IMG/VR virus record: IMGVR_UViG_3300045988_092074
Span: 1 to 53,187 of that record
Reading direction: 5' to 3' (one strand)
Length of the DNA: 53,187 nucleotides
Source of the DNA: a virus
The translations under genes were made by a program, and so were the position numbers. Each line of letters begins with the position of its first letter. The stretch's first letter is position 1. Of this stretch, positions 2,742 to 53,187 are shown in pieces. The notes under the pieces were generated by a model. That model worked only from the letters and a program-made list of their open reading frames with translations. It was not told the origin of the DNA and did not search any database.

Positions 2742-3530
2742 TTATTTAATTAAAGTATCTCTTATTACTATATAAGCCTCTCGTGATATTGGCACATTAG
2801 GAATAATGCCTGTTTGGAGCTGTTGCTGCTCTGGTAGATTAAGTTGCATTTGGCCTTTTCCAAATACACGGTCCCAAAGCTTCTCAACTGTTTCTATGTT
2901 ACCAAGTTTTGCGTCATCTTGCAAACGCTTTATAACTGTCTTGATAACAATTGGTATTTTTTTATTACTATATAGAGCCGCCAACTGTGCTTCATTGCAT
3001 GTTAACAAACAAGCCAATAAATTAGCTGTATCTTGCTTTGTAAGCTGAACACTTAAATTGATATTAAGGCTAGTAAGAAGCTTCGTTATCTCAGGTCTTG
3101 ATGCTCCTTGTAATTGAAGTGCTGAGCGTATAGCTGATGAGTATGAGCCTTTGCCAGAGTTATGGCGTTCTGCTAGCTCAGTTGCCTTAAGTGGCTCTAC
3201 AGTCTGAGCCTCAAGCGCCTCTATAGCCTCAACTCGTTTTTGTTGCTCTGCAATACGTTTGGCTTGGAGCTCAGTTTGGCCATCTGGTATTTCTTCCACG
3301 CCAAGTTCTTCTGCTAATGATTGGCGTTTTTCTTGTTTGGCTTGAAGGTTTTTAAGCTTTTGCTTTTCAAGATACTTAATACGAGCCAATTCTTTTGCAT
3401 CTTGCTTTGCCTTAATACGTGTGGCCTCTTGTTCTACAAGTTTGGATGTGTCCGGATTAGACATTCCAGGAACTACTGGGCGTGATGGCAGTATATCTGC
3501 TAATTTCTGTGCTATTTTATCTGTTTTCAT
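2742..3530 (-). CDS. terS: Terminase small subunit (putative)
   Basis: 262 aa, immediately upstream of terL. Coiled-coil N-terminus. C-terminal VEKLWDRVFGKG resembles the conserved ...DRAFGK end of Terminase_2-type small subunits. Confidence 0.5.
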   Translation of the reverse strand: MKTDKIAQKLADILPSRPVVPGMSNPDTSKLVEQEATRIKAKQDAKELARIKYLEKQKLKNLQAKQEKRQSLAEELGVEEIPDGQTELQAKRIAEQQKRVEAIEALEAQTVEPLKATELAERHNSGKGSYSSAIRSALQLQGASRPEITKLLTSLNINLSVQLTKQDTANLLACLLTCNEAQLAALYSNKKIPIVIKTVIKRLQDDAKLGNIETVEKLWDRVFGKGQMQLNLPEQQQLQTGIIPNVPISREAYIVIRDTLIK

Positions 3531-3531
3531 A

Positions 3532-4326
3532 TCAATTTTGATTTTTTGCGATAAATTCTTTTTGTCTTTCTATCAGTTCAGCTTCTGATGGTATCTGTGC
3601 TTCTCTAAAGCGCCTATCTTTACTTTGGCTTATATCAATTATGGGTTGATAGATATAAGACCATATATATCCTCCTGCTGATTTTATATGGCCATTGCAA
3701 CACATGGATATATTACTTGCACAAATCCCAGTTTCTTCAGCTGCATCTTTTATGGAGGCATATTCATTTATAAATAACCCAGTATTTCTATCATAACTGC
3801 ATACTGACTTTGAAAGTCGCCCTCTTCTACACATATTATAAATACTATTATGCGGGTACATAGCATTTTTATCTACCTCATTCATAAGTTCTTGTAATAA
3901 TATGTTGGCATAATTTTGTTCAAAAGCATTGCCTGCTTTTATGAGAGTATTGTAGCCATAAGGCAAATATGTTCTATTTGCTTTTATCAATTCATATTTA
4001 CGGGCAAGTACTTCTGACTCATCTGTGAGTCCATGTTTTTCTATATTAACAGTTATGTATTTGCTGTTTAATAAAGCTTGTCTTAGCTCTATACTCTTTG
4101 CGTTTATGCTTAGAATTTGTCTGATTAGACTTTTTACTCCTCTATACACTGATTGATTGAAAGTATGACAGACTATGAGCCTACTATCAAATTCAAATTC
4201 TACAGTGAAGACTGCCCATTCATTTGATAGGCTATCTATGCTTGTAGTAATATCTACCTGTATGCCATCAATATTTACCATATTAGAAATTTTATTGCTA
4301 TTTATATTTACAACGTGAAAATACAT
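3532..4326 (-). CDS. Homing-endonuclease-like protein (degenerate GIY-YIG-like N-terminal region plus NUMOD-type DNA-binding module)
   Basis: The C-terminal motif SVCSYDRNTGLFINEYASIKDAAEETGICASNISMCCNGHIKSAGGYIWSY is the typical helix-turn-helix module of free-standing phage homing endonucleases. The central region ...NIEKHGLTDESEVLARKYELIKANRTYLPYGYN resembles the GIY-YIG core end. Confidence 0.5.
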   Translation of the reverse strand: MYFHVVNINSNKISNMVNIDGIQVDITTSIDSLSNEWAVFTVEFEFDSRLIVCHTFNQSVYRGVKSLIRQILSINAKSIELRQALLNSKYITVNIEKHGLTDESEVLARKYELIKANRTYLPYGYNTLIKAGNAFEQNYANILLQELMNEVDKNAMYPHNSIYNMCRRGRLSKSVCSYDRNTGLFINEYASIKDAAEETGICASNISMCCNGHIKSAGGYIWSYIYQPIIDISQSKDRRFREAQIPSEAELIERQKEFIAKNQN

Positions 4327-4582
4327 AAATAACTATATATATAAAAATTCTCGCACAGAAAATTCATAGGAAAAAAATTTTCAAGAAACAATATAAAACT
4401 TTTTGTTTCTCAGCAAAGTATTAAAAATCAATTAGTTAAGCATTCTCGCATTGCAAAATAAACGAAACAACGAATGCTCACTTACTTTTTATGGAATATG
4501 TAATATGTATTTATTATATTTTGGTTCATAAGTATAATAATTATAAATTCTATATTACAATTCATTCTATTTTTTAGTAATT

Positions 4583-4675
4583 TTATTGTTTATTTGTTTA
4601 TAATATATCTAACTCATTGAAAATCAATCACTTACAGAGAAACAATCGATTGTTTATTTTGTTTCTCTTGTTTAC
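4583..4675. repeat. Iteron element copy A (ttattgtttatttgttta ... aaacaatcgattgtttattttgtttctcttgtttac), homologous to 27024-27116
   Basis: An 18/18 nt block and a 33/36 nt block with an identical 57-nt offset in both copies. Contains the perfect 16-bp palindrome aaacaatcgattgttt (4640-4655). Confidence 0.85.
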
Positions 4676-5211
4676 AGCCTTTTTGCGAGAATACCTGAAT
4701 GACAGATTTTGCGAATTTTTGATTTGGTGGCAATTTGCGAGAATGATTTGGGGCCAAAAAATTTTTTTCTGATCATGAACATGGCTCTGTATACTATATA
4801 TAAGGGGCACCCAGGCACTGCAGCAGGGGGCCTAATTTCCACATTGGCAAAATTCTTGAAATATAAAAATCTATCAGGTTAAGAAGTGTTAAGCCTATCA
4901 GCCTAATTCGTTAATTATGGTTTAATTCGTTAAAGGTTATTAAGATGACTACCTGTTAACAACTCTTAACTAAAATAACTTTCAAGTTTCAAACCAGAGA
5001 CAGGCACACAGCCTCTCATATGACAACCTTTAATGAATGTTTAACATTTCCTAACCTAATATATTTCATGGTTTCGTAGGTTTTATTATCATAAAGGTAT
5101 AATTTATCAATTTCAGATTATTAATCAAAACAACCATCACATCTAACATGATTTAACTCATAGAATTTTTATATGATATTTGTTTTACATCCATCAAAAA
5201 ATTATCATATA

Positions 5212-5262
5212 AATTTTTCAGGTTCATAAATTATTAGTATATTTACATATCGAAAATAACGG
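5212..5262 (+). promoter_or_regulatory. Early promoter P1 (Bacteroidota-type, -7 box tatattta at 5238-5245)
   Basis: tatatttacatatcgaaaataac matches the family consensus TATATTTRCA..ATC(A/G)AAAATAA. A T-rich -33-like tttttca lies upstream. Confidence 0.5.
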
Positions 5263-5312
5263 ATAAAACGATCGAGGTTATAAATAAAATTTAACATAAA
5301 AAATTGATCAAA

Positions 5313-5365
5313 AGTTTTTCCGGTTAAAATAAAATGAGTATATTTACAATATCAAAATAAAACGA
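5313..5365 (+). promoter_or_regulatory. Early promoter P2 (-7 box 5339-5346)
   Basis: gtttttcc..17 nt..tatatttacaatatcaaaataaaac, directly upstream of the ATG at 5368. Confidence 0.6.
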
Positions 5366-5367
5366 TT

Positions 5368-5541
5368 ATGACACAGTTAGAAAGCTTCTTATTTGAATTA
5401 TCATTCGGAGATATTAAAAAAATCCGTGATTACATGTTAAAAAGATACCACGTATATTGTGGTTCAATGGTAAAATTGGCAAAAGAAATAGACGAGAGAT
5501 TGCCCGAGCCACTTGAAGAACTGTACGAAGTGCTCGCGTAA
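5368..5541 (+). CDS. Small early ORF, 57 aa (below the ORF-track cutoff)
   Basis: My translation is MTQLESFLFELSFGDIKKIRDYMLKRYHVYCGSMVKLAKEIDERLPEPLEELYEVLA*, starting 22 nt after the P2 -7 box. Confidence 0.5.
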   Translation: MTQLESFLFELSFGDIKKIRDYMLKRYHVYCGSMVKLAKEIDERLPEPLEELYEVLA

Positions 5542-5551
5542 CAAGAGAACA

Positions 5552-5607
5552 TCCCGGGCAGGAGAATGGCCGTAATGGCATCAGTGGTTCAACTCCACTG
5601 CCGGGAA
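5552..5607 (+). other. tRNA-like minihelix (acceptor-like stem tcccgg/ccggga plus T-arm-like hairpin agtgg-ttcaact-ccact), flanked by AACAAGAGAA direct repeats
   Basis: Read directly. GGTTCAACTCC is a canonical T-stem-loop sequence. A 6-bp outer stem closes right after it. No D or anticodon arm, and no U-run. Confidence 0.3.
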
Positions 5608-5637
5608 CAAGAGAATTAACAAATAAAATTACAGTAA
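5606..5637 (+). repeat. 32-nt leader repeat copy 1 (aacaagagaattaacaaataaaattacagtaa), identical to 6615-6646
   Basis: Perfect 32/32 match. Each copy ends 1 nt before an ATG (5639 and 6648). Confidence 0.9.
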
Positions 5638-5638
5638 A

Positions 5639-5995
5639 ATGAAGACACTTAGAAATTATCGTTTCGTATTGACTAACATTCCTAATAGTATGTTAGAGAC
5701 AGGAGAAATAAGAATTGACAATGAGGAAGTAACCGGCGAGAGAATGTTTGTCAGTGAATGTCATTACTATGCCGAGAAAAATATCATTGAGTGTATAAAA
5801 GATGCAGCGAAACGCGATGACTTGCGCGGTTACTACGAACATACCTATTGTGTCTACAAAGAGGACAAATCGAAAAAGGAGACAGTAGAGCGCGAAGAGG
5901 GTGGCAAGAAAATTACCGAGACGAGAGAAATACCTGGCAAGGCGATATTGATCGAGGTGATTACCGTAGACGAGAACGGCATAAACATCCGATAA
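5639..5995 (+). CDS. Early hypothetical protein, 118 aa
   Basis: ORF preceded by the conserved 32-nt leader, on the same strand as the early promoters. Confidence 0.6.
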   Translation: MKTLRNYRFVLTNIPNSMLETGEIRIDNEEVTGERMFVSECHYYAEKNIIECIKDAAKRDDLRGYYEHTYCVYKEDKSKKETVEREEGGKKITETREIPGKAILIEVITVDENGINIR

Positions 5996-6060
5996 AAACG
6001 GATAGCCGTTCGCCCTCCGGATTGGACGAGTAAAACAATACCTAAATACAGAAGAATAAT

Positions 6061-6291
6061 ATGAAGAAGATAGCTTATTTGTATGTTGAAAGAGATGATA
6101 GCGAATATGACTATAAAGTCGGATTTGCAAGCTACACCGAGGCAAATGAATATCGACAAGAGTGCCAACGTAGATGGATAGGCCACTGTGACTATGTGTA
6201 TCTTTGGACCGGTTCCGAGAGAATTAACCTCACAAGAATGCCGAAAGACGAGAGAAATGAATTATTAAAACAATTTAACATACCGGAATAA
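6061..6291 (+). CDS. Early hypothetical protein, 76 aa
   Basis: ORF whose stop overlaps the next start (TAATG at 6289-6293). Confidence 0.55.
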   Translation: MKKIAYLYVERDDSEYDYKVGFASYTEANEYRQECQRRWIGHCDYVYLWTGSERINLTRMPKDERNELLKQFNIPE

Positions 6292-6539
6292 TGGAAAATA
6301 ACAAATCACAGTTCAAGAGAACAGGAGTTTTGCACGATGGAGCCGAGTGTATTGAGATACAAATAAGTCACTCAGGCGATGCGGCAAGGTATGTGAGCAC
6401 AATCACGTTCACAGTAAAGGACCCAGAGGTCACGAGAGGCCGTTGGCAAGAGATACACTACAGCAAGAGAAATGGCTATGCGTATATTGTGAAATACGGC
6501 AAGAGACTATATTTGCACAAATTTCTAAGAATATACTAA
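6291..6539 (+). CDS. Early hypothetical protein, 82 aa
   Basis: Start is coupled to the upstream ORF (TAATG). Confidence 0.55.
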   Translation: MENNKSQFKRTGVLHDGAECIEIQISHSGDAARYVSTITFTVKDPEVTRGRWQEIHYSKRNGYAYIVKYGKRLYLHKFLRIY

Positions 6540-6614
6540 CATGGCAGTAAGAATGAATGTAAAATAACCAACACTATTTAACGAAAAAAGTTCTTAAAGC
6601 AGTAACCAGATTAA

Positions 6615-6646
6615 AACAAGAGAATTAACAAATAAAATTACAGTAA
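6615..6646 (+). repeat. 32-nt leader repeat copy 2
   Basis: Identical to 5606-5637. Confidence 0.9.
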
Positions 6647-6647
6647 T

Positions 6648-6812
6648 ATGGTAACAATGAAATTTTCAGCAACTAAGTCAGAAACGCTGTTTTTGACACC
6701 AACAATTGCAGTTGAACAAGACAACTCAGAAACAGCAATCCGATTTGCTCTTTGGCACAGCGTGTTCAGCGTAGAGATAAGCAAGAGTTATAAAACTGTA
6801 AAAGCTAAATAA
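6648..6812 (+). CDS. Small early ORF, 54 aa (below the ORF-track cutoff)
   Basis: My translation is MVTMKFSATKSETLFLTPTIAVEQDNSETAIRFALWHSVFSVEISKSYKTVKAK*. Preceded by the conserved leader. The stop is 1 nt before the next ATG (6814). Confidence 0.5.
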   Translation: MVTMKFSATKSETLFLTPTIAVEQDNSETAIRFALWHSVFSVEISKSYKTVKAK

Positions 6813-6813
6813 T

Positions 6814-7080
6814 ATGGCAAGAAACGAAATGTTTGTAACAGCTTATAGGCTTGAAGTTGAGGCCATTCGAGAGAATTTGAGTAATATGGAGAACTTCATA
6901 GAAGCCATTTCGGATTGCGCTATCGTGTCCAATGAGGAAAGTAACGTAGCTATTATAGTAGCGTCTTCGGATGCCTTAGGAACAACGAAATTGGCTAATA
7001 TGGCACTCAGATTCTTTGGCAAGGAGGGATATAATATAAGTACTCTCGGACTTTTAGGGCCGTTCAAGAAACTCAATTGA
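6814..7080 (+). CDS. Early hypothetical protein, 88 aa
   Basis: ORF tightly packed after the 6648 ORF. Confidence 0.55.
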   Translation: MARNEMFVTAYRLEVEAIRENLSNMENFIEAISDCAIVSNEESNVAIIVASSDALGTTKLANMALRFFGKEGYNISTLGLLGPFKKLN

Positions 7081-7117
7081 TATTTTTTAACATAAAACTT
7101 GGAAAATAATTCTCAAA

Positions 7118-7172
7118 ACGGTTTTATAAATTGAATAAACATATTATATTTGCAATATCAAAATAAAACAAG
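7118..7172 (+). promoter_or_regulatory. Early promoter P3 (-7 box tatatttg at 7145-7152)
   Basis: ggttttat..17 nt..tatatttgcaatatcaaaataaaac. An exact TAnnTTTG match. The downstream leader aaaatttacagcattATG resembles the 32-nt leader end. Confidence 0.65.
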
Positions 7173-7198
7173 TAATAACAATTAAAATTTACAGCATT

Positions 7199-8320
7199 AT
7201 GGCAACAAAGAAATTTTCACAAATGACAACGAAGAAGTTAAATGCTCTTTTAGCAACAGCAAGTGACGAAGATAAAGCCGAGATTGAGGCTGTACTCGCA
7301 GCTCGTGAGCAAGCTCAAGCTCCAGTATCAGGAGAAACACAATCCGAAGTGGCAAACCCTGTACAGGAGTTCGAAGACACAGAGAACCCGTTAACACCTG
7401 AGGAAGAAGCAGCTATAAAAGCAGCAGAAGAGAACAATGGTGTCAATCCGATGAGCAATAGCAGCAAAGCAACTCTTGAGAAAAAGCCGAAGATGACCGA
7501 TGAGGAGCGCCATGCATTGGCCGAAGAGCTGAAAAAGAATATCAATCACCGCTGTCAAGCAGTCCCGTTCAATACTGTAGAATGGGTTGATGGTTACATC
7601 GCAGGAGTAGTCGAGGAGAAGCGCACAAACAAAGTTCTTTACGCTATTAAGACAGATGACGGACGCCGCATCGTTAAGGTGCATGACAGTAATCTTGTTC
7701 GCATTTTGGACGAAGTCATTGAGCCGGAAAAGAAAATTCGTGCTCGTAAAGCAAAAGATCCAGTAGATAAAATCGATTGGACACCGGAAGCAATCGCCGA
7801 AGAGATTAATGAAGTTATCGACAATGTCGGTAAAATGGTAGAATTTGAGAAATACCGTACTACAGATGAAAATGGTGAAGAGCATGCCGAAATGGTAGTC
7901 GGCCGTATTGTGGCAATCGTGCCAGATAAACGAGCTCAGCGTTTACTTTACCGTATTTTAGTCCCGACACCTATTGAAGGTAATCCACTTGCAGCAAAGA
8001 CAATGCATAAAGTCGCAAAAGCTGATGGCCTTAAAATTGCCGAAGAGTTCGACGAAGAAGGTATGCGGCTCAATGCTAAATATTTGGAACGCCGTGAGGC
8101 AGCAGCAACCCGCGCTCCGCTTACTCCGCAAGATCGCGTAATCCGTTGCGAAGAGAATGTTAAAAAGGCAGAAGAGAAGCTGCAGAAAGCTCAGGAAGAA
8201 CTGGAAGCTAAAAAGAAACAGCTTGAAGATGCAAAAAAGGAATTGGATGAATATTTAGCCGCTCAGGTGAATGAAACCCCAGCTAATGGTATTTCATCTG
8301 AAGAGGAATCACTTGCTTAA
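7199..8320 (+). CDS. Early acidic protein, 373 aa, with two internal beta-rich repeats and a C-terminal coiled coil
   Basis: Own promoter (P3) and a strong terminator. Internal repeat: VEWVDGYIAGVVEEKRTNKVLYAIKTDDGRRIVKV versus VEFEKY..AEMVVGRIVAIVPDKRAQRLLYRILV. Confidence 0.7.
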   Translation: MATKKFSQMTTKKLNALLATASDEDKAEIEAVLAAREQAQAPVSGETQSEVANPVQEFEDTENPLTPEEEAAIKAAEENNGVNPMSNSSKATLEKKPKMTDEERHALAEELKKNINHRCQAVPFNTVEWVDGYIAGVVEEKRTNKVLYAIKTDDGRRIVKVHDSNLVRILDEVIEPEKKIRARKAKDPVDKIDWTPEAIAEEINEVIDNVGKMVEFEKYRTTDENGEEHAEMVVGRIVAIVPDKRAQRLLYRILVPTPIEGNPLAAKTMHKVAKADGLKIAEEFDEEGMRLNAKYLERREAAATRAPLTPQDRVIRCEENVKKAEEKLQKAQEELEAKKKQLEDAKKELDEYLAAQVNETPANGISSEEESLA

Positions 8321-8346
8321 TGTTCGTTATATAGTTCTGCCATGAA

Positions 8347-8380
8347 AAGAGTCGTCTCGAAAGAGGCGGCTCTTTTTTTT
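8347..8380 (+). terminator. Rho-independent terminator
   Basis: aagagtcgtctc-gaaa-gaggcggctctt followed by a T-run reaching 8380 (two G:U pairs in the stem). Confidence 0.8.
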
Positions 8381-8663
8381 ATATCCTCACCATTTATGTT
8401 AAAATATGTAATCTTATAAAAGCATGCTTCTTTCGCGTTCTAGGACACTTTTAGGCTTTGAGTGTACTATAATATGGGTTAACTCAATTCGACGCGATAG
8501 AGGTCAAAAGAAGCGTATCTATCAATGTATTTTTATAAAGTCTATAATATGAATTGAGGTATGGACTTTCTTGAGTTTTAGGCCACCAGGCAGCTATATA
8601 AATAGTTGTTAAATTTATGGCTAATAGTTGACTCATTTTCTTGGCCTCTAGGATATTTTTATT

Positions 8664-9093
8664 CGAGAATAATAGTAAACCAAATCTATAAAAAGAAATG
8701 AGGAGAGAATGAACGAGAATAATGAAATTTCATATATTTTTGAATAGCTCAGAGGCTCTATGTTTTTGACCAAAGATGTGATGCAGCAGTGAAAATTTTT
8801 ATGTTAAAACCTGTAAAACAGCAATCTATTTCAAGGTTATTTTGTATTTTAGCTTATAAAAGAACAAAAGTAAAACTGTTAAAATATGTTACACACTAAA
8901 ATGCATAAAAGCCGCATGGCTATCATGGTTAAGCGGCTTATGCTTGTAGGTGCAGAGTGCATATTCTGTTATGCCTACGTAAGTGTGATACAGAAGTTAG
9001 CGGGAGAAACGGCCGAGAGAATACTTGCCATGACTGGACAAGAGAATACTATAAGGTCTAACAGGAGAAATATCACAAGCATAACAGGAGAAT
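8664..9093 (+). promoter_or_regulatory. Relaxed GAGAAT/GAGAAA repeats upstream of the 9096 gene (8664, 8705, 8715, then 9004, 9017, 9042, 9065, 9088)
   Basis: Read directly. cgagaataat appears twice. gagaat 8705 and 8715 are 10 bp apart. The last four copies are spaced 23-25 bp apart. Confidence 0.35.
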
Positions 9094-9095
9094 AA
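8886..9095 (+). CDS. Doubtful ORF, 69 aa
   Basis: The stop abuts the ATG of the next gene. However, the sequence is dominated by a hairpin (8903-8943) and GAGAAT repeats, so it may be a leader rather than a gene. Confidence 0.25.
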   Translation: MLHTKMHKSRMAIMVKRLMLVGAECIFCYAYVSVIQKLAGETAERILAMTGQENTIRSNRRNITSITGE

Positions 9096-9572
9096 ATGAG
9101 CAATTTTATTTTAGATTACAGCAAAAAGCAGACTTTGCAAATATCAAATGATGCTTTTTATTTTCTGTACTATGGTGAAGAGCCATTAGACGAAAATAAT
9201 TTAGAAGAAGCAAATGATGTGTCTGAAATGTTTTTCAATAACTTTTACATAGAAGATGATTGGAAAGCAGTTGATGATTCAGACCTTATAGAATGCACCT
9301 TTATTCCGTATATTGAAGATCAAGCAGATTATGATGAGTATGAGGATCTCACTAGACATATTCAGCAGCAAATAAAATGGCTTGATGCAAATCATGTTAG
9401 AGTATGGTGGTTTAATAGCCAAACTGGCACAAGAGAATTGCAAGGTGATTTTAAGGTTTATACAAACGAGTATGGTCATAAATGTTTTCATACCGGTAAT
9501 CAAGATGAGAACTTTATAACAGGAAAAATGTGTATATATTTTCTGAAAAATTTTAAGAAGCGCATATCCTAA
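9096..9572 (+). CDS. Hypothetical acidic protein, 158 aa
   Basis: ORF ending at the bidirectional terminator. Confidence 0.6.
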   Translation: MSNFILDYSKKQTLQISNDAFYFLYYGEEPLDENNLEEANDVSEMFFNNFYIEDDWKAVDDSDLIECTFIPYIEDQADYDEYEDLTRHIQQQIKWLDANHVRVWWFNSQTGTRELQGDFKVYTNEYGHKCFHTGNQDENFITGKMCIYFLKNFKKRIS

Positions 9573-9605
9573 AAAGCAGACTACAGAAAAGTAGTCTGCT
9601 TTTTT
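9571..9605. terminator. Bidirectional rho-independent terminator between convergent genes
   Basis: aaaaa-gcagactac-agaaaa-gtagtctgc-ttttt. An A-run and a T-run flank a perfect ~10-bp stem. Confidence 0.85.
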
Positions 9606-10326
9606 ACATTAGGCTTTCATCTTTTTCTACGACGAGAGAATAGCCGACACCTCTTATAGTTTCTATAACAACACGGCTGTCCATTTTAAGCATATTTCGC
9701 AACATACATATGTGAACGTCTAAGCTGCGTTTATTAAAGTAGTTATCATCAGCCCATACTTGTTGCATAAGTATTTTCTTAGGTAACGTTTCATTTTTAT
9801 AAGCGCATAGTAAAGCAAGAACTTGGCTTAGTTTATTATTAAGCTGTGTTTTTACATCGCCTACAGTAAGAATTTTATCTATTGTATTAAACAGGTAATC
9901 GCCTATCTCATAAGATGATTCTATATTTCTCACTCGTATACCGCACCTTTTTAAAACAGCTTTTATTCTTCTTATAAGCTCTTCAATATTATATGGCCTT
10001 ATTACGTAATCATCTGCACCTTCATCAAAAGCTTCTATGACATAATCATACCTAGCTTTATCTGACACCATTATTACTGGTATTTTATTATCTGATTTGC
10101 GTAAAAACTTTAATGGTTTTAACCTCATAGAAATATCTGTTGTCTTATAATGACTTAATATGCACAAGTCATAATTCTTTTCTCTGATTTTGGCCAATAT
10201 ATCCTTCTCAGTAGAGGTTATTACTTGAAAGCCATTATATACTAAGTAATCTACCAAAATTTTACAGTCTTCATCTTGATAGATTAAAATTCTCGGCAAT
10301 GCTAATTTAGTGTTATTACTTTTCAT
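9604..10326 (-). CDS. OmpR/PhoB-family response-regulator-like transcription factor with degenerate (phospho-acceptor-less) receiver domain
   Basis: 240 aa. The N-terminus aligns to the receiver fold (ILIYQDED..., VIMVSD, GADDYVIRPY). CILSHY sits where DLxxLD carries the acceptor Asp. The C-terminus is winged-helix Trans_reg_C-like (LSQVLALL...QQVW...RSLDVHICMLRNML...IETIRGVGYSL). Confidence 0.8.
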   Translation of the reverse strand: MKSNNTKLALPRILIYQDEDCKILVDYLVYNGFQVITSTEKDILAKIREKNYDLCILSHYKTTDISMRLKPLKFLRKSDNKIPVIMVSDKARYDYVIEAFDEGADDYVIRPYNIEELIRRIKAVLKRCGIRVRNIESSYEIGDYLFNTIDKILTVGDVKTQLNNKLSQVLALLCAYKNETLPKKILMQQVWADDNYFNKRSLDVHICMLRNMLKMDSRVVIETIRGVGYSLVVEKDESLM

Positions 10327-13478: not shown

Positions 13479-13564
13479 TATTCTCGCGCGTTCTAGAGCA
13501 CGCTTATTATTCCATTATTATTCACCATTCATGTACTTAAAGCGCGATATTGCGCGCGAGAATA
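13479..13564. promoter_or_regulatory. Perfect 12-bp inverted repeat tattctcgcgcg / cgcgcgagaata (GCGAGAAT boxes) separated by 62 nt
   Basis: Read directly (13479-13490 and 13553-13564). Occupies the whole intergenic gap between dut and the next gene. Confidence 0.7.
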
Positions 13565-19268: not shown

Positions 19269-19453
19269 AATCTGGCCATATAAATGTTATACTCACACTT
19301 ATCTAAATTAAATTCTAATCTGTCAACACAAAACATTTGGCCATTGTGTATAACAATTGTTTTGACAGACGGAATATGCTCTATGTTTTTTGTAACAAGG
19401 AGCACGGAATTACGGTAATTTCCATATTGCATTTTATAAAAATTCGCTATCAT
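19265..19453 (-). CDS. Hypothetical protein, 62 aa
   Basis: ORF coupled at both ends. Confidence 0.45.
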   Translation of the reverse strand: MIANFYKMQYGNYRNSVLLVTKNIEHIPSVKTIVIHNGQMFCVDRLEFNLDKCEYNIYMARL

Positions 19454-21852
19454 AATAAACTATCTTTACGCTTATAGTATTTTTGTTTGCCATATAGTGA
19501 AAAATTCTTAGTAGATGCTATAGCTTCCCATTCAGGCATTGACCTAATAATTTCATTAATCTCTCTTGTGTTATACCTAGACATATCATTCTTTTCTTTG
19601 CTAAGGCACTCACACCATATTTCAGCGATGCATACAAAGTCTTTTTGTACTGTGCCATTCTTAGACAATGGGTCTTCAAGCCAACGTCTTCTGTCGTACA
19701 AGTCCATTTTATCCCAGTCATCTGGAAATTTAGTATTAAGATACTCCTCGATAATACCTCTACGCTCATCTGTCTCTGAATGTTTGTGCTGCTCAATCTT
19801 AGCGATTATGTCTTCGTCACCAACAAGGTATAAAGGCTCTTTTGCTAAATATAGCTGATATGCCTCAGCCCATATTTGGTCTACTTCATCTTGAGTAAGA
19901 TCATCTATAACAGATTTTGTAACGTATTCTGGCCTTACATCTATAGGCATAAAGCGCCGGTTTCCTGTCGGGTCGCGTAAAAAGTCTTTATTGTTAGTAG
20001 TACCAAAAAACACGCATTGCCTTTTGTATGTTTCCACTGTTCTACCATACGCTGGCCTGAACATATCTTCTCTTTTTGATATGTAATGCTTAATCGATTC
20101 TACTTCTGCTTTCTTAAGACCTGAAAGCTCTGCCATTTCAATTAGCCACGCTCCTTGTATCTGCTCAAATGATTCCTTGCCCTGTACAGTCGTGAATGTA
20201 TCTGAGAACCATTCCATGCCGAGCTTTTTAACGAAAGTACTTTTATACGTTCCTTGTTCTCCGACCAATATGAGTGATGTGTCGAATTTAACTCCGGGCT
20301 CAAAAACTCTGGCGACTGCAGCACAGAGCATTTTTCTAATGGCAGCTCTAGTATAGGCATTATCTTCAGCCCCAAAATAATCGATTAACAGTGTATTGAC
20401 TCTAGGTATACTATCCCATTCTTGTTCCAGCAAGTACTTTCTTATAGGATGAAACTTCTTCTTTTCAAACTCAAGCGCAAGTGCGTCATCAACCTTTTGG
20501 CTTGATACAATACCATAAACACACTCAATATAATTACGCACACCGGAATAATCAACATCACGAAAAGGATCAATAGCGTCAATTTTACGCCAAGGTAACG
20601 AACGTGTAACATATCTTTTATTATCAAAAATATTTAACTTAAATACATCTTTTAAAAACTGATCATGTTGAATTATTATGTTCAGGTTGTTTGCTGAATT
20701 GTCATATTCGCCTTTTGTATTAGCATCAAGCTCTTCTGTCCATGAAGTATCATAGTCTTCAGGAGCTTCTGCTTTTGCTTCTTCTGTGAACTCGAATTTA
20801 GCTTCAGCAAACTTTTCTTCAGCGATATGCTTTTTTGTTGTAGAGTCTTTAGAGGCAAATTCTTCCATTGCCTTAAAGCTCTTTTTATCTTTGTCTTCTT
20901 TTTCTTTGCCTGTATCTAAATGGCCAAATTTATGTATGCGGACTAAGTCAAATGCATTACATAATCTGCCTCCTGCTGGGTCTGTTCCATGATGGGAATA
21001 TGCAAATTTATCATCATAGACTATTAAGCCCGCAGCCGTAGAGCCATTTATATATGTATATCGCCCTTCTCCAGCTGGTGTATATACATCTGAAAGAAAA
21101 GTCTCAATAGCTTCTTGTATAGTATAAGTACGGCAGAAAACACCAATTATGCCTTTTTTATCTTCTGGGTCTTCTTGCTTTTTAATAGCTTGCATTATTA
21201 CATCTGTGCTATCTGTAGCAGTTGGCCATTCGTTTGTGTCATGCCAATCATTATATAGCCCAAGGATATAATCAGCTTCAAGAAAAGGCCCGTCTTGAAA
21301 CTCAAAGTAGTATTCCATATCTGATGATACAGACGGCCAGAACATAAGTCTATTTACATCAAAAGTTGACTGGTCAAACAAATCAATGTTTAAGTCTCCT
21401 GCGACTTTTCTAGCAATAGCTTGATATTCTTCTTGCGATACTTCTCTATCGAGCGGAATTATCAATCTGTGCCGTGGCTTTTCAGGACACGACTTGTGAG
21501 TTGAATGTATAGCCGCAGCACACCCGAATAGCATTGTAAAATCCCACCAAAAATTTTCATGAGAAAAGTCAATATCCAATGTAATTAACTGGCGGTAAAG
21601 CACATTTGTTTTATCGCGCCTACCATTTGTAAGAAAGCCACCTACAAATCCTCCTACATCTTTTATCTTACTTTGCTCTTCTTTTGTAGCATTTATAAAC
21701 CGCTTGTATGTTTCAGTGGTTACTACAGGAGTAGCTAATTTTTGGACTAATCCGCTCCAAGTAATTTTGGTATTTTTCCATACTTTACTTGAGACATTTA
21801 GCCCTATAGCTATGCTCAAATTCTCATCATATTTCAATTTATCTACTTGCAT
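19450..21852 (-). CDS. Primase-polymerase / VirE-D5-type helicase fusion
   Basis: 800 aa. N-terminal prim-pol-like DxD (LITLDIDF). C-terminal P-loop VGEQGTYKSTF and FFGTTN...RRF, typical of VirE/D5 replicative NTPases. Confidence 0.75.
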   Translation of the reverse strand: MQVDKLKYDENLSIAIGLNVSSKVWKNTKITWSGLVQKLATPVVTTETYKRFINATKEEQSKIKDVGGFVGGFLTNGRRDKTNVLYRQLITLDIDFSHENFWWDFTMLFGCAAAIHSTHKSCPEKPRHRLIIPLDREVSQEEYQAIARKVAGDLNIDLFDQSTFDVNRLMFWPSVSSDMEYYFEFQDGPFLEADYILGLYNDWHDTNEWPTATDSTDVIMQAIKKQEDPEDKKGIIGVFCRTYTIQEAIETFLSDVYTPAGEGRYTYINGSTAAGLIVYDDKFAYSHHGTDPAGGRLCNAFDLVRIHKFGHLDTGKEKEDKDKKSFKAMEEFASKDSTTKKHIAEEKFAEAKFEFTEEAKAEAPEDYDTSWTEELDANTKGEYDNSANNLNIIIQHDQFLKDVFKLNIFDNKRYVTRSLPWRKIDAIDPFRDVDYSGVRNYIECVYGIVSSQKVDDALALEFEKKKFHPIRKYLLEQEWDSIPRVNTLLIDYFGAEDNAYTRAAIRKMLCAAVARVFEPGVKFDTSLILVGEQGTYKSTFVKKLGMEWFSDTFTTVQGKESFEQIQGAWLIEMAELSGLKKAEVESIKHYISKREDMFRPAYGRTVETYKRQCVFFGTTNNKDFLRDPTGNRRFMPIDVRPEYVTKSVIDDLTQDEVDQIWAEAYQLYLAKEPLYLVGDEDIIAKIEQHKHSETDERRGIIEEYLNTKFPDDWDKMDLYDRRRWLEDPLSKNGTVQKDFVCIAEIWCECLSKEKNDMSRYNTREINEIIRSMPEWEAIASTKNFSLYGKQKYYKRKDSLL

Positions 21853-25936: not shown

Positions 25937-26356
25937 TTACAGTGATTCTAAGAAGTTATACATTTCGTCATATTTAGCCGGGTCAAGCTTTGTCACACTC
26001 GGGGCTCCAAGCTCATTGAGTTTCTGCTTAATCTCGTCACGATGCTCATTGACTTTTTCTGCGAGCATGCCGCGAACATCCTCAATGTTCTTAGAGGCAG
26101 AAGAAGCAGCCGGAGCAGCAGGTGCTGAAGGTGCAGGTTTGGCAGCGCTTTGAGTCTGAGCAGGTGCTGCAGGCTGGGTAGTAGGTTTTGCAGGAGCTGG
26201 CTTTGCTGGTGCGGCAGGAGCAGCCGGAGCGGGCTTGGCAGCCGGAGCAGCAGGTGCTGAAGGAGCAATAGCATTACCAAACAATGACTTAATGAAATTC
26301 TGCGTATTTTCAGACAGGTTTACGCTAACCTCAACAGAAATTTTAATCGTTTCCAT
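25937..26356 (-). CDS. Two-domain protein with a ~70-aa Ala/Pro-rich linker, 139 aa
   Basis: APSAPAAPAAKPAPAAPAAPAKPAPAKPTTQPAAPAQTQSAAKPAPSAPAAPAA low-complexity core. Locally GC-rich DNA. Confidence 0.6.
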   Translation of the reverse strand: METIKISVEVSVNLSENTQNFIKSLFGNAIAPSAPAAPAAKPAPAAPAAPAKPAPAKPTTQPAAPAQTQSAAKPAPSAPAAPAASSASKNIEDVRGMLAEKVNEHRDEIKQKLNELGAPSVTKLDPAKYDEMYNFLESL

Positions 26357-26759
26357 TTTCGTAATTTTTAATAAAGTTATCTAAATAGTTAATAAACTCG
26401 CTTACTGTCATATCTGGTACGTTTGAGAGCTTCTGATGAATAAGTTCATTGTTCTTATATATAGATACGTACACGCCTTTATAATTCAGTTTTACCTTGT
26501 ATTCACCTTTAAGCATTGTCAGGCATCCGTCTTCAGATGAACCTTTCCAAGTATTTGCTGAAAACAAGTCAGTTACTAACACGCCAATATGATTGGCCAA
26601 TCGCTCTAGCTGTATAACATCCAAATTGGCTTCGCCTTTTAACACGCGGTCAAAGGCTTGTTTCGGATATTTAACAGTAGGAAATAACACCTTTGCTAAA
26701 TCTTCTGTATTTAGCTTGTAGTGCTCAATAACATTACCTATATTAAATTGTTGCTCCAT
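26343..26759 (-). CDS. XRE/Cro-type helix-turn-helix protein (putative early regulator)
   Basis: 138 aa. The N-terminus NTEDLAKVLFPTVKYPKQAFDRVLKGEANLDVIQLERLANHIGVLVTDLF fits an HTH_3-like pattern. First gene after promoter P4. Confidence 0.55.
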   Translation of the reverse strand: MEQQFNIGNVIEHYKLNTEDLAKVLFPTVKYPKQAFDRVLKGEANLDVIQLERLANHIGVLVTDLFSANTWKGSSEDGCLTMLKGEYKVKLNYKGVYVSIYKNNELIHQKLSNVPDMTVSEFINYLDNFIKNYENGND

Positions 26760-26871: not shown

Positions 26872-26904
26872 CGGCAATTTTAGTAGGAGGGCTTGAAATT
26901 GCCG
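26872..26904 (-). terminator. Hairpin, candidate terminator of the late transcription unit
   Basis: cggcaattt / aaattgccg is a 9-bp perfect stem with a 15-nt loop. On the minus strand it is followed by ttaaatattttt. Confidence 0.45.
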
Positions 26905-27023
26905 TAAACAAAGAAACAATAGAAACAATCTCCCCTATTATTTCAAACTTAATTTCTTAATTTCCGATTAACATTAGTGTTAATAAGAAATACCAGCTTT
27001 TACTACGAGAAGATTTAATGAAA

Positions 27024-27116
27024 TTATTGTTTATTTGTTTACAGCATATATAAGTAATTGATTTTGAGCACTTTAGGCGTAAACAATGGATTGTTTATAT
27101 TGTTTCTATTGTTTAC
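27024..27116. repeat. Iteron element copy B (homolog of 4583-4675). More half-sites at 26904-26930 (gtaaacaaagaaacaatagaaacaatc).
   Basis: See copy A. The last block overlaps the stop codon of the spanin-like gene. Confidence 0.85.
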
Positions 27117-27505
27117 CGCTTTATAAAGTATTTTGCACACAGCCCTATAATTATTAAGATTATGGTAGTTTTCAGGTATTCGTCTATGTTAATTTTTATC
27201 TTTTGCCACTTTGTGAGCTGAGCTTCCACAGGATATGCAATTTGAATCGTATCAACTTTTTCTCGCCAGAGAGTATCATGCTTTTCTATGTATTTATACA
27301 AATATTTATATTTACTGAGATACACGGTATCACCTTTGCGCTCTACATAGATTGAATCTCTATGATATATGCTATCAATTTTGGTCTGAGATAAGTAAGT
27401 AGTATCTCTTTTCATTGTTTCCACAGGCACATATTGAATTGACTTACAGCTGTATAATATAGTGGCTAAAAATATAAATGTAATTATTCTCGCTAATTCT
27501 CGCAT
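27113..27505 (-). CDS. Unimolecular-spanin candidate (N-terminal lipoprotein signal plus C-terminal transmembrane helix)
   Basis: 130 aa. MRELARIITFIFLATILYSC has a lipobox-like LYSC. The C-terminus TTIILIIIGLCAKYFIKR is hydrophobic. Last gene of the lysis cassette. Same architecture and size class as T1 gp11. Confidence 0.55.
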   Translation of the reverse strand: MRELARIITFIFLATILYSCKSIQYVPVETMKRDTTYLSQTKIDSIYHRDSIYVERKGDTVYLSKYKYLYKYIEKHDTLWREKVDTIQIAYPVEAQLTKWQKIKINIDEYLKTTIILIIIGLCAKYFIKR

Positions 27506-27544
27506 AATCTTCGAATTTTATTTGTTATTATTCATATTTAATAT

Positions 27545-27589
27545 AAAAACCATTCTCGTAATAATTTCTTATGTGCGAGAATGGTTTTT
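27545..27589. terminator. Bidirectional terminator-like hairpin whose stem is built from GAGAAT boxes
   Basis: aaaaaccattctcg / cgagaatggttttt is a 14-bp perfect stem with a 17-nt loop, flanked by A- and T-runs. It sits between the amidase and spanin-like genes. Confidence 0.65.
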
Positions 27590-27596
27590 ATACACT

Positions 27597-29542: not shown

Positions 29543-30037
29543 TTAATTTTCAAATTTTTTGATGAAATTTTCCATCATTTCCTGTTGTTTTTTCATAAGT
29601 TCCTCCATATTGTTGATTGATGTCTCAATCTTACCGAAACGTTGTTCTGTTTCTTGCTTTTCCTTATACATAGGATTAAGCTCTGCGAGCAATGAAGGAG
29701 CTTTTTTAATAATGTTTTGTGCTTTAGAAGCAGAAGCTAAAACTTGTTCTGCACTTGCCTTCTGAGCTTCAACCTCACTTGCCAACCCAGGTTTTTCTGT
29801 TGCTAAAACGAGATGCCCAGCATAAGTAACTGAATGGTTTTCAGGAATAGTATATGTTGCTATTTTCCCATTAGCCTCTATAGTGACATCCACTACCATC
29901 TCAGTTTTACCGGTTTTCTGGTTCATTTCCAATCTAGGAAATGATACCTGAGTAGCTTTGCCTTGAATAATATCAAACTCCTGTGTATCTAGAATATATA
30001 CAGGATAATTCTGTTTTATGTCTTTAAACAATATCAT
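29543..30037 (-). CDS. Hypothetical protein, 164 aa (coiled-coil C-terminus)
   Basis: ORF only. Confidence 0.55.
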   Translation of the reverse strand: MILFKDIKQNYPVYILDTQEFDIIQGKATQVSFPRLEMNQKTGKTEMVVDVTIEANGKIATYTIPENHSVTYAGHLVLATEKPGLASEVEAQKASAEQVLASASKAQNIIKKAPSLLAELNPMYKEKQETEQRFGKIETSINNMEELMKKQQEMMENFIKKFEN

Positions 30038-33464: not shown

Positions 33465-36400
33465 TTACGCCGCTTTTAAATTGTTCAACTCTTCTCTTAA
33501 CTCTTTCACCTCTTCTTCAAGGTCTGCTATACGCTTGTCCTTGTCGGTCATCCATGACTTTGTAGGGCCGATGAACTTATCCAGCTTAATATTAAGCTCA
33601 TTGATGCCATTGATTGACACTACAGTAGCCAGCGTAGCGTAATCAACGGTCAATATATCACCATAATCCGGCGTGCTAGCGGCGCCTATAACCTCCGGGA
33701 ATACATTACGCACCTCTTGGGCGCTAACGCCTATCCTAGTCTTTTTGTCACCTATATCAATGCGCTTGTGATAGAAAGCATACAAGTTTTTTATCTTGTC
33801 AAGAACGCCAGATACGTTCATGCCTCGTTCTTTTAAGCGTATATCCGAACCATTGGTATAGTTACCTGCTACGTACATATTTCCAGATGGAGAGAATGAG
33901 CCTTTATTGTTGTTTGTTCCTCCAAAACAGAAATATACTATATTATCACCACGCTGCGACAAATAGAAATTGTTTGTACCTCCTTGTAACCCAAATGCAG
34001 CCCATGTAGCTTTTACTGTTACGATGTTAGTAACAATACCACCGTTGAATGAAGGTCCTGCAGGCCCAGTCGGCCCCTGTGGCCCAGTCGGCCCCTGTGG
34101 GCCGGTAGCACCTTTAGGCCCCTGTGGCCCGGTAGCCCCTTGCGGCCCACGAATATTCCTCGTGGTTGGAGTAGTCGTTGACGTGCTGTTCGTCCAGCTA
34201 AGATTACCACTCGTATCAACCGATGGATACCAGTATTTAAATGGAGCTGGAGCGTTCCCCGTGGAATATGCCACGACATCACCAGTGGCTCTTATATTTT
34301 TGCTAGACGTGAAATTACTCGTACAATTCAACGTGTCGCTTGACGTGGTTATGAGCCGGGACGTGTAATCAGCCGTGCTATTACCGTGGTGGAAGTCGAT
34401 ATGTGGAGTGGAAGCATTTAGCTCAATAGATCCTTTACCAATATAAGTATTACTGCTATTACTATTAGCACTTGTATTAGCTTCTCCCACATATACGCCT
34501 TGCGTAAAATATCCATTTGCGAATCTAGTTCCCGTACTTCCTATATTATAAGTGTTGTTAGCTCTAGGATAGATATGGTTACTGTTGATATTTGTTTTTA
34601 TAGTAAAAATACTATTATTCCAATATCCTATTTCCGATCCTACAGCATCTCCAGCTCCAGTTCCAGCGTAAAAACTATATCCTGATGTTCCCCTGTGGCC
34701 AAACAGTATAATATTAGCATCATAGGCATTTATATTAAGCTGGCCACTTTCTAATGAAGTTAATAAATATATGCCATTTCTGTATATAGTAAAAGTGTTG
34801 TTAGTCGAATAGATATTGCCGACATTTTCTAAGCTACCAAAAATGTTGGCCGTTCCATCAAACGATCTTCCCCAAATGGTTCTGGCCGTCATTAGCTTCG
34901 TGGCGCTTGAGGCGCTTGAGGCGTTTCCGATTAATGATCCTTCAAAAATAGATGCTGTTATATGGGAATCTTTAGCATAATTCCCACCATTATCGGATTT
35001 TGACAAGGCTATTGGCTCTACATAGTATTCATAACCAGCTGAAGTACTTCCAACATTAGTTCTAGCATAGTAAGTATTTATACTGTTTATTCCAGCACTG
35101 CAATATATTCTATAAGTAGCTGTTCCCCCTCTTAGCCAAAATACGATAATGGGTTTGTCATTTCCCCGAACTTCTACTTTCTTCAACAAACTTGCATACG
35201 GTTGTAGATTGCATAGTGTAGTAAAAAAGTTCGCATTGCCATCCCAAGACCCTATTCTGCCAATACCTATGTAATTAATACTACTAGTTTTATTACTATG
35301 GTTGCCATCCCAATTAGGATTTGATGTTGAACCTAACGATTTACCTACACCTATTGTATATGGGACTCCATTGGTATTAACTGCAACTTCTAAAACTACA
35401 GGATAGAATGCGTTATAATCATTTGTTACCGTTATTTCCCTAGACCTAGCAGTACTAGTATGATACCAATCAATTGTTGTATTATATAAATTACTCCTAT
35501 GATACCCATCTACCATATCAGCGTTAAGGTTATTGCATAACGTGGTAGAAACCACATCAATAGGTTTAGTTCCAGTGGCTACCTTGGAGATATAACGGCC
35601 TGTGTTGTACAGAAACATATTAGGGTCGCTACCCTCTAAAATGCCTTCCTTGCTTATAGCGATCCCATATCCAGCTAAAAACGTATCATAATACTCGTGT
35701 CTTAATATCACGTTTTGTGTTGCGTCTTGCGCAGCGGTGAATTTTATACCTGCGGCCTTGCTTTTTGCATCACTAACAGTTGATTTAAGTGTCAATTGGC
35801 TATTGATAGTATTAGATGCTATAGTTAACGCCCCGGTCATCGTATCACCTGCTTTTTTCACGTACTTGCTGTCGAGCGTAGCAGCATAATTAGCAGTGGT
35901 CAACGCTGTTAAATCCTTGGTAAACGTTATTATCTTCTTGTCAGAGCTGAGCGTTGCGTTTGTAAGTACATTGCCATTTCCTGTAACTGATATCCCCCCG
36001 ATAGTACCGGTTCCAGATACTGATATAGTTCCGTCAGCTGATATAGATATGCCAGACCCGATCTTCACCGCCCCAAGCGAGTTTGTACCGGCTATAGGAA
36101 GGACTATGTCGCCGGAACCAGTGGCGTAAGCGACTACATCGCCACCCGCTTTCACGTTTCCACTAAATATTGAATCAATTGCATTAATATTAAATTCCTT
36201 CAAACACGTATTTAAGTACCCGCTTAGATGAAAATTATATGATGCTACACCATTTTTACCATATTGCAACCATAGATCAGTTGAAGTTGATTCTACTATT
36301 CTAAATGATGTACCATTATTAGCGTGATATCCGTCTATGTATGTATATGATACATTTGCTGTACCATCGGCTTTAAGCCCTAACAATGATGATGCGCCTC

Positions 36401-45842: not shown

Positions 45843-46111
45843 AATAAAATTCGCGTTATAGGGGTTGACACTATAGGAGTAAATATAATGCTCATCTCGT
45901 TAAAGATAATAGCGAGAATAATAGCGAGAATAAGTGACGTCCAAAAACTTAAACAAAAATCACACTCGAATAATTGAGAGATAAGCTTAGGGGCCTCAGC
46001 GACTATTTTGTCGCGTATGCCAAGCCTTTCAGCAAGTAAAATAGCAAATGCGGCTGATGAAGATATGTATATCAAAGCCGAAAGCATTGTTATAAAATAT
46101 ACCGTTGACAT
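45839..46111 (-). CDS. Small membrane protein, 90 aa
   Basis: Three hydrophobic segments. Contains a 12-nt tandem duplication carrying two GCGAGAAT words (45912-45919 and 45924-45931, coding ILAIILAI). Confidence 0.5.
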   Translation of the reverse strand: MSTVYFITMLSALIYISSSAAFAILLAERLGIRDKIVAEAPKLISQLFECDFCLSFWTSLILAIILAIIFNEMSIIFTPIVSTPITRILL

Positions 46112-53102: not shown

Positions 53103-53187
53103 ATTTTTTTTTATTCACTGCTTCCTGCTGAAGGAGCATTAACCCAATCAGTAAGAGGATTGAAGTCAAGTGATTCACGCTTAATAA
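53103..53187. repeat. Second copy of the 85-bp terminal duplication
   Basis: Identical to 1-85. Confidence 0.95.

Follow-up and report, generated by a model that had tools for sequence, protein, structure and literature searches.

What is the role of a DNA element that occurs twice in a phage genome, once beside each end of the late genes? The question arose from an initial annotation of the window, i.e. the whole 53,187-nt stretch of viral DNA analysed here, which offered three possible answers: operator arrays for an adjacent XRE-type helix–turn–helix (HTH) protein, replication-origin iterons next to a DNA-unwinding element, or boundary and antitermination sites.

A duplicated element in a circular phage genome

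The window represents a circular assembly of 53,102 bp, as its bases 1–85 recur at 53,103–53,187, and it belongs to a phage of the gut Bacteroidota type, from a clade that is very abundant in the human gut. More than 100 close relatives are present among IMG/VR contigs, one related record comes from human faeces, and a single protein cluster already comprises 2475 member sequences. The nearest cultured relatives are the Bacteroides fragilis phage BF486P2 and its kin (about 70% amino-acid identity), the Croceibacter phage P2559Y (about 57%), which shares no more than its replication module and structural genes with the window phage, and the Elizabethkingia phage TCUEAP1 (about 48%). No integrase was encountered among the proteins scanned, Rfam and tRNA scans of the window gave no match, and a 26-nt core of the element had no match in the bacterial genomes scanned and thus provides no clue to a prophage or a host. 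The ORF listing and family scans yield the following gene layout:

4326 down to 1, then 53,102 down to about 27,600, minus strand: late unit, with a NUMOD/I-HmuI-like ORF, a putative small terminase, the large terminase, structural genes and an amidase
27,113–27,505, minus strand: a 130-aa ORF, separate, after the amidase gene of the late unit
26,759 down to 9604, minus strand: replication and nucleotide-metabolism module
5368–9572, plus strand: small genes, with no family-scan hit for any of them

The replication module opens with a 138-aa protein, followed by an Ala/Pro-rich 139-aa protein, a DUF2800 nuclease, a Gp2.5/Enc34-type ssDNA-binding protein and PolA, and continues with an 800-aa VapE-type primase-helicase, a small endonuclease, an SNF2 helicase, thymidylate synthase, dUTPase and an OmpR-type response regulator. 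The element itself is present as two full copies:

4583–4675, plus strand: copy A, the right arm of locus A, conserved in the A-type copies of related contigs
27,024–27,116, plus strand: copy B, the right arm of locus B, found upstream of the gene for the 138-aa protein in 79 of 80 related loci

The two copies share, as initially annotated, block 1 (ttattgtttatttgttta, 18 of 18 nt matching, at 4583 and 27,024) and block 2 (33 of 36 nt, 4640–4675 versus 27,081–27,116), separated by the same 57-nt offset in both. A comparison of the genome with itself, proposed earlier as a check, confirms the pairing: when every gapless 93-nt direct pair of the circular genome is scored, the one starting at 4583 and 27,024 is the single best direct repeat, with 70 of 93 positions matching, versus maxima of 51–55 of 93 in ten composition-preserving block shuffles. 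The duplicated element is real and far above chance; it is also conserved in about 100 related viral contigs and looks functional.

At the core of the element is an iteron, TTGTTT(A/C). The hexamer AAACAA/TTGTTT occurs at 18 sites in loci A and B (nine in each), against 0.68 expected. The 8-mer ATTGTTTA shows a weak genome-wide enrichment (10 occurrences versus 5.8 expected), and with the total so little raised the signal lies in the clustering of the sites, not in their genome-wide count. Block 1 of copy A contains two iterons (4586 and 4594), while its block 2 starts with a back-to-back iteron pair forming the perfect 16-bp palindrome AAACAATCGATTGTTT (4640–4655), which had been recognized from the outset, and continues with two direct iterons 9 nt apart (4659 and 4668). 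The corresponding parts of copy B are the block 1 iterons at 27,027 and 27,035, the near-palindrome AAACAATGGATTGTTT at 27,081–27,096, and the direct iterons at 27,100 and 27,109. The last of these shares bases with the stop codon of the 130-aa ORF; contrary to the initial annotation, which let copy B start at the stop codon of the last late gene, this codon (27,113–27,115) marks the end of the copy. The centre of each element holds an IHF-like consensus, seen in copy A at the palindrome ATTGAAAATCAAT (4616–4634) and in copy B on the minus strand (27,051–27,063). The iterons are spaced by 8–9 nt, i.e. off the helical repeat, which is a point against reading the arrays as an origin.

The earlier statement that the element brackets the late unit holds for the positions of the copies, which are conserved in relatives. 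It holds less well for the transcript: the 130-aa ORF is a swappable cassette in relatives, and a terminator-like hairpin with an 18-bp stem (27,548–27,593, z = −7.8) lies between this ORF and the amidase gene, so the ORF is probably outside the main late transcript. Position is likewise what could speak for a transcription boundary, with the copies acting as terminators or as antitermination (nut/put-like) RNA at both ends of the late genes. However, the RNA folds of both strands of both copies were not significant relative to shuffles (z from −0.4 to −1.8), no terminator-like pattern and no Rfam family was detected in them, and the strong hairpin terminator candidate lies elsewhere, at the site just mentioned. 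Scans for sigma-70 promoters and terminators around both loci gave hits no commoner than in shuffled sequence. Furthermore, the centre of the palindrome varies among copies (CG, GG, TG or a single C) and the arms are fixed, a pattern that fits protein half-sites, given that a loop of 0–2 nt cannot form a hairpin. The boundary or antitermination role suggested initially thus finds no support, and we regard it as exceedingly improbable.

Two-armed arrays and their counterparts in related phages

Each full copy is one arm of a larger, two-armed structure, in which a weaker inverted arm lies across a spacer. An nhmmer profile built from 19 homologous copies and used to scan for partial copies delimited the remaining parts of the two loci:

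4384–4470, minus strand: A′, the left arm of locus A, a degenerate inverted partial copy (nhmmer match 4463 to 4384, E = 1.4e-5)
4471–4582, no strand: AT-rich spacer of locus A, 82% AT, a candidate DNA-unwinding element
26,891–26,963, minus strand: B′, the inverted left arm of locus B (nhmmer match 26,963 to 26,891, E = 7.8e-5)
26,964–27,023, no strand: spacer between the arms of locus B, within the top 4.5% least stable windows

A′ carries iterons at 4386–4391 (minus strand), 4403–4408 (plus) and 4465–4470 (minus) together with a WATCAANNNNTTR-like site (4426–4438), and an equivalent inverted arm was also found in other relatives from the clade. B′ carries three inverted iterons (26,906, 26,914 and 26,923) that face the promoter of the replication module. 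These sites account for the extra half-sites that had been listed near both copies; the inverted arms as such, and a partner protein, were absent from the initial annotation. The sites of each locus are therefore arranged in head-to-head arms around the spacer, and each module also contains an extra conserved motif, ATTGA-N3-TCAAT, common to the window phage, BF486P2 and a metagenomic lineage referred to here as lineage X.

Nowhere in the genome is the DNA less stable than in the spacer of locus A, where a 100-nt window beginning at 4508 is 89% AT and has −96.6 kcal/mol, versus a mean of −126.6 (s.d. 8). At locus B, the region 26,931–27,023 is 74% AT; its spacer is moderately AT-rich, less so than that of locus A, and this weighs against an origin there. 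Among close relatives the spacer exists in several unrelated sequence versions, with the AT content kept at 72–87% and with the iterons and the inverted left arm retained, a pattern expected of an unwinding element flanked by protein-binding sites. Footprinting across the window's own clade, where relatives are at least 90% alike per column, did not separate the sites from the spacer. GC and AT skew in the window phage, P2559Y and TCUEAP1 follow the coding strand or transcription and hence give no usable origin signal; that GC skew carries none is a further point against the origin reading.

The search for the half-site array in relatives, another check that had been proposed, recovered it beyond the phage's own clade. 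In related phages, one copy separates the lysis genes from the replication module and the other lies upstream of the terminase or late genes. The best 60-nt repeat in the entire P2559Y genome (57 of 60 positions) matches a site upstream of the homologue of the 138-aa protein to one upstream of the terminase genes, and both loci feature dense (G/A)TAAACAAT iterons and the palindrome AAACAATCATTGTTT, with inverted arrays around AT-rich DNA. Lineage X (contigs L185, L186 and L188) has the same iteron and palindrome as the window phage, again at two loci. TCUEAP1 uses a different iteron, TGTCTCA, with 10 of its 13 genomic copies falling into the two equivalent regions, where they form inverted arrays with about 100 nt of AT-rich DNA between them. 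BF486P2, in turn, although the closest of the cultured relatives, is without TTGTTT arrays and has another duplicated element of ~125 nt in the corresponding two places. When this phage was searched for short enriched iterons, none that is clearly defined emerged, and the lack of a sharply enriched one counts against the origin reading. The layout is thus old and kept and the recognized sequence is lineage-specific, which is the signature of a site co-evolving with a phage-encoded binding protein. In the literature on BF486P2 and P2559Y we found nothing on the replication of either phage.

Two other explanations can be weighed against this distribution. One of them sees in the copies the sites of a host DNA-binding protein, or recombination hot spots for cassette exchange at module boundaries. 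Consistent with it, copy B is duplicated around swappable ORF cassettes, in a rearranged region, in the relatives L061, L094, L024 and L065, and the IHF-like consensus sits in the centre of each element. A host factor, however, fails to explain why BF486P2, a phage of Bacteroides, lacks the iteron and a phage of the marine Croceibacter has it. Any dispersed repeat can give rise to cassette exchange as a side effect, and the family scans show no recombinase encoded nearby, all of which makes this explanation very improbable. The other takes the arrays for a packaging (pac) site read by the small terminase subunit, a notion encouraged by the location of the locus A equivalents, which immediately precede the terminase genes in P2559Y and TCUEAP1, and of locus A itself, 1–2 kb upstream of these genes in the window. 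The second copy is nevertheless far from the terminase genes. Moreover, no homologue of the putative small terminase (2742–3530) was detectable in P2559Y, whose iterons are identical, and the protein is 43% identical to that of BF486P2, which is without these iterons. A pac function is in our opinion hardly credible.

A candidate protein partner and a possible mechanism

Which phage protein could then read the iterons? Two candidates encoded in the replication module deserve attention:

26,343–26,759, minus strand: 138-aa protein, first gene of the replication module (AF2 and Foldseek)
19,450–21,852, minus strand: 800-aa primase-helicase with a VapE-like SF3 domain, homologue of the Rep protein of SaPIs (Staphylococcus aureus pathogenicity islands), proposed initiator
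19,453–19,662, minus strand: C-terminal winged-helix domain of the latter (residues 731–800), proposed iteron reader (AF2 and Foldseek)

The 138-aa protein is the one to which the initial annotation had assigned the arrays as operators, repressing the late genes and regulating its own operon. Pfam and PHROG gave no family for it, and its HTH nature is a matter of the predicted fold: the AF2 model (pLDDT 84) combines an XRE/Cro-like five-helix N-terminal domain with a beta-rich C-terminal domain, and Foldseek points to the HTH domains of PrgX, C.BclI, DdrO and Stl, with probabilities of 0.97–1.0 and weak E-values. The predicted Cro/C1-like N-terminal fold thus agrees with that part of the earlier claim, the gene adjoins locus B in a position kept in all lineages, and the element contains palindromes of the kind favoured by dimeric HTH proteins. 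The iterons, however, do not track this protein. Its HTH segment (residues 21–40) shares 85% identity with that of BF486P2, a phage without TTGTTT arrays, whereas the whole protein has just 25–29% identity with the P2559Y and lineage X homologues despite the same iteron and palindrome. With the operator sequence not co-varying with the HTH region, the 138-aa protein is a poor candidate for the iteron reader. Nine short hexamers per locus at 8–9-nt spacing would also be atypical for an XRE protein, and the 138-aa protein may instead bind ATTGA-N3-TCAAT or act as a regulator. We accordingly disfavour the operator explanation and hold it to be improbable.

The 800-aa protein, assigned to PHROG 256/9765 and to the Pfam family VapE-like_dom (1.5e-80), matches SaPI1 Rep (7PDS) over its residues 381–772 (E = 1.7e-76). 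An AF2 model of its C-terminal 130 residues (pLDDT 84) is a winged helix with the H-H-H plus beta-hairpin topology, for which the top Foldseek matches are the SaPI1 Rep chains of 7PDS (E = 2e-5, probability 1.0), followed by winged helices of the Fox, IRF, GntR and MarR types. The candidate recognition helix is REINEIIRS (residues 763–771) and the predicted wing STKNF...GKQKYY; the residues that differ in BF486P2 and TCUEAP1 cluster in this helix and in the first wing strand, STKNF. We compared sequence identities of the body (residues 1–730) and the C-terminal domain (residues 731–800) across six lineages:

Window versus BF486P2: body 72%, C-terminal domain 46%
Window versus P2559Y: body 57%, C-terminal domain 66%
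Window versus lineage X: body 60%, C-terminal domain 63%
Window-like sublineage L187 versus P2559Y: body 57%, C-terminal domain 74%
TCUEAP1 versus any other lineage: body 52–55%, C-terminal domain 22–28%

These identities indicate that the C-terminal domain follows the iteron and the body follows the phylogeny; in a tblastn search with the C-terminal domain alone, P2559Y indeed ranks above BF486P2. Over the six lineages, the lineage-specific matching of domain and iteron comprises few independent events, namely one clear switch (BF486P2) and one outgroup (TCUEAP1), which is a point against the origin reading. No such reversal of identities was found in the HTH protein, the SNF2 helicase, the DUF2800 nuclease or the Gp2.5-like protein; PolA exhibits small reversals only, and the Ala/Pro-rich 139-aa protein shows one only in a poorly alignable linker. 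Judging from these alignments, no other protein tested co-varies with the iteron as the C-terminal domain does.

Inverted arrays, between them the most AT-rich and least stable DNA of the genome, a Rep homologue and this co-variation together lead us to favour the initially suggested replication-origin iterons with an adjacent unwinding element. Specifically, we consider it reasonably probable that the phage has a Rep-type iteron replication-origin module, present twice (4384–4675 and 26,891–27,116), the duplicated element being most likely the stronger arm of each module. Arrays of the iteron in opposite directions would flank the AT-rich spacer, with one back-to-back pair making up the 16-bp palindrome. 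The C-terminal winged helix of the primase-helicase would bind the iterons; the protein would then assemble on both arms, melt the spacer, load itself as the replicative helicase and prime for the phage PolA. We infer binding, melting and initiation at the two loci by analogy with SaPI Rep and P4 alpha. The two modules could represent either two origins or one origin plus a cis-acting enhancer; of the two loci, A is the likelier main origin, as its DNA is the easiest to melt. Duplicated modules are unusual for this type of origin, which counts against the reading.

The arrays may also be bound by the primase-helicase without one or both of the copies being initiation sites; they could serve as a cis enhancer of a single origin (like crr of P4), could restrain initiation through pairing or 'handcuffing', or could be autoregulatory. 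The evidence linking the protein to the iterons applies equally here. Locus B is located about 100 bp upstream of the replication-module promoter, with B′ just upstream of its Bacteroidetes-type −7 box (TATATTTG, about 26,800), and the lower AT content of the locus B spacer is in line with such a role. Four to five lineages have kept exactly two copies, which likewise fits and suggests that the copies cooperate. On the other hand, both loci have the full two-armed architecture and an AT-rich centre, and no sequence feature tells an enhancer from an origin. A non-initiating role appears rather unlikely to us. It is conceivable, too, but unlikely, that the two modules constitute a conserved paired system instead of two independent origins, in which helicase-initiator complexes bound at the boundary of lysis and replication genes and at the boundary near the terminase would pair and loop the genome into a replication/early and a late domain. 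If so, replication initiation would be coupled to the late-transcription switch or to packaging, and the dispersed repeats would double as recombination joints for swaps of moron cassettes.

We know of no replication origin mapped for this kind of Bacteroidota phage. The iteron-origin reading supplies a testable pair, namely the TTGTTT arrays and the C-terminal winged helix of the primase-helicase, with candidate specificity residues and with BF486P2 and TCUEAP1 as natural specificity variants. The modules could also seed shuttle or phagemid vectors for Bacteroides, and they bear on the reading of coverage peaks in gut viromes.

Comparison with known iteron systems

The Rep proteins of SaPIs are helicases that load themselves and recognize iterons of 5–6 nt by a C-terminal winged helix; a SaPI origin has 6–12 iterons flanking an AT-rich centre, two or more to either side and in opposite directions (PMC9371898). 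Loci A and B share this organization, each having nine opposed hexamers with an AT-rich centre, and the 800-aa protein is a Rep-family SF3 helicase by homology and carries a C-terminal winged helix in its predicted fold. Co-variation of iteron and domain is a further likeness. The position of the arrays is different. Whereas a SaPI origin comes immediately after rep, and the staphylococcal phage QT1, with a related helicase, has its repeats right behind that gene, the window phage lacks an iteron cluster at the end of its primase-helicase gene (19,450), and its arrays lie 5–7 kb and about 15 kb away from it, at module boundaries; this remoteness weighs against the origin reading. The window phage also differs from SaPIs in having two modules per genome, which include the back-to-back iteron palindrome and the ATTGA-N3-TCAAT and IHF-like motifs, in the phylum of its host (Bacteroidota), and in being a 53-kb phage with no integrase among the proteins scanned.

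Another likeness is offered by the iteron plasmids and phage lambda, in which initiators of the winged-helix or related type (RepA of pPS10, pi of R6K, TrfA of RK2, and lambda O) bind direct iterons beside an AT-rich unwinding element. In iteron plasmids and ori-lambda, inverted copies of the iteron are often extra (operator) sites, and IHF-type sites are often embedded. Unlike the 800-aa protein, with which they have no homology, these initiators are not helicases and recruit the host DnaB.

In the satellite phage P4, primase and helicase are combined in one polypeptide, the alpha protein, whose C-terminal winged-helix domain binds the origin by reading short repeated sites. Its iteron, the octamer TGTTCACC, is present in two separated cis regions, ori and crr, which are about 4.5 kb apart in a replicon of 11.6 kb; crr itself consists of two direct repeats of 120 bp. 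These facts reportedly go back to the work of Flensburg & Calendar in 1987, Ziegelin et al. in 1993 and Yeo et al. in 2002. The window phage resembles P4 in having two separated, conserved regions that share one iteron, here a hexamer instead of an octamer. Two origin-like modules at module boundaries depart from the SaPI rule of one origin after rep, and the question is why two have been kept. The SaPI Rep and its iteron origin are the closest mechanistic and evolutionary relative of the system described here, while P4 alpha with ori and crr offers, by analogy, the nearest functional precedent for a pair of iteron regions that lie apart.

Motifs in and around the iteron arrays

The motif GCGAGAAT is present in 14 copies in the window against 1.6 expected, with 12 of the 14 being intergenic, and is arranged in tandem pairs with a spacing of 10-12 nt. 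It flanks locus A, the first of the two TTGTTT iteron loci, on either side as inverted sets facing outward. A gap of 20 nt separates the motif from the downstream start codons (ATG) at 4326 and 13459.

832-918, 4347-4449, 4685-4744, 13480-13563, 27486-27582 and 45912-45931: GCGAGAAT sites
9604-10326, minus strand: OmpR-type response regulator gene (receiver domain and Trans_reg_C winged helix)

The motif could represent a middle or late promoter or an activator site, perhaps one used by the phage's own response regulator. No homologue of this regulator was found in the cultured phages BF486P2, P2559Y and TCUEAP1, and BF486P2 is almost devoid of GCGAGAAT.

A second conserved motif, the palindrome ATTGA-N3-TCAAT, occupies a central position in each iteron element and is overlapped by an IHF-like consensus, WATCAANNNNTTR. 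Comparison across the lineages shows the palindrome to be common to the window phage, BF486P2 and the metagenomic lineage X, and absent from P2559Y and TCUEAP1.

Palindrome/IHF-like sites:
Window, 4616-4634, 4426-4438 and 27051-27063 (minus strand)
BF486P2 (L099), 6879 and 30318
Lineage X member L186, 509, 18076, 18156 and 18333

The neighbourhood of locus A

3532-4326, minus strand: first ORF of the late unit
5238, 5339 and 7145, plus strand, and about 26800, minus strand: promoter-like repeat family

The first late-unit ORF, conserved only in part in BF486P2, is homing-endonuclease-like, as it combines an I-HmuI/NUMOD-like DNA-binding domain with a match to an HNH-endonuclease PHROG. On the right side of copy A, a stretch of approximately 700 nt (4676-5367) contains no convincing gene. 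Within this region, at about 4805-4833, lies a GC-rich hairpin followed by TAATTT, possibly representing a small RNA or terminator; its counterpart is kept in BF486P2 (about 29890-29930), and the z-score of its fold in the window is not significant.

The promoter-like repeats, carrying a Bacteroidetes-type -7 box (TATATTTG/A ... ATCAAAATA), are located upstream of the small genes on the plus strand as well as of the 138-aa gene, which encodes the HTH protein. This family is consistent with a host from the Bacteroidota and with the replication module being expressed early. The 139-aa ORF beside the HTH gene includes an Ala/Pro-rich low-complexity linker (26097-26267), and a 1882-aa ORF harbours collagen-like repeats with a 9-nt period (34054-34143).

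The boundary at copy B

In relatives, the ORF adjoining copy B is an interchangeable cassette: the position is taken by a lipoprotein-like ORF of 130 aa or by one of 214 aa, each with an element B of its own behind it (L061, 1343-2785; L094, 1733-2785; L024; L065). One relative carries a duplication of the 138-aa gene's 5' end together with its promoter. Element B is a marker of a recombination-prone boundary.

27548-27593: hairpin (18-bp stem) flanked by A/T runs on either side (z -7.8)

This hairpin, which bears the CGAGAAT motif within its stem, separates the amidase gene from the 130-aa ORF and looks like a bidirectional terminator.

Comparison with Staphylococcus phage QT1

In QT1, annotated repeat regions (2942-3300), consisting of opposed short repeats of the CGTCCC / GGCACG type, lie directly 3' of the homologous helicase gene. 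Such placement of the QT1 repeats after the helicase gene corresponds to the SaPI-like position of a putative origin.
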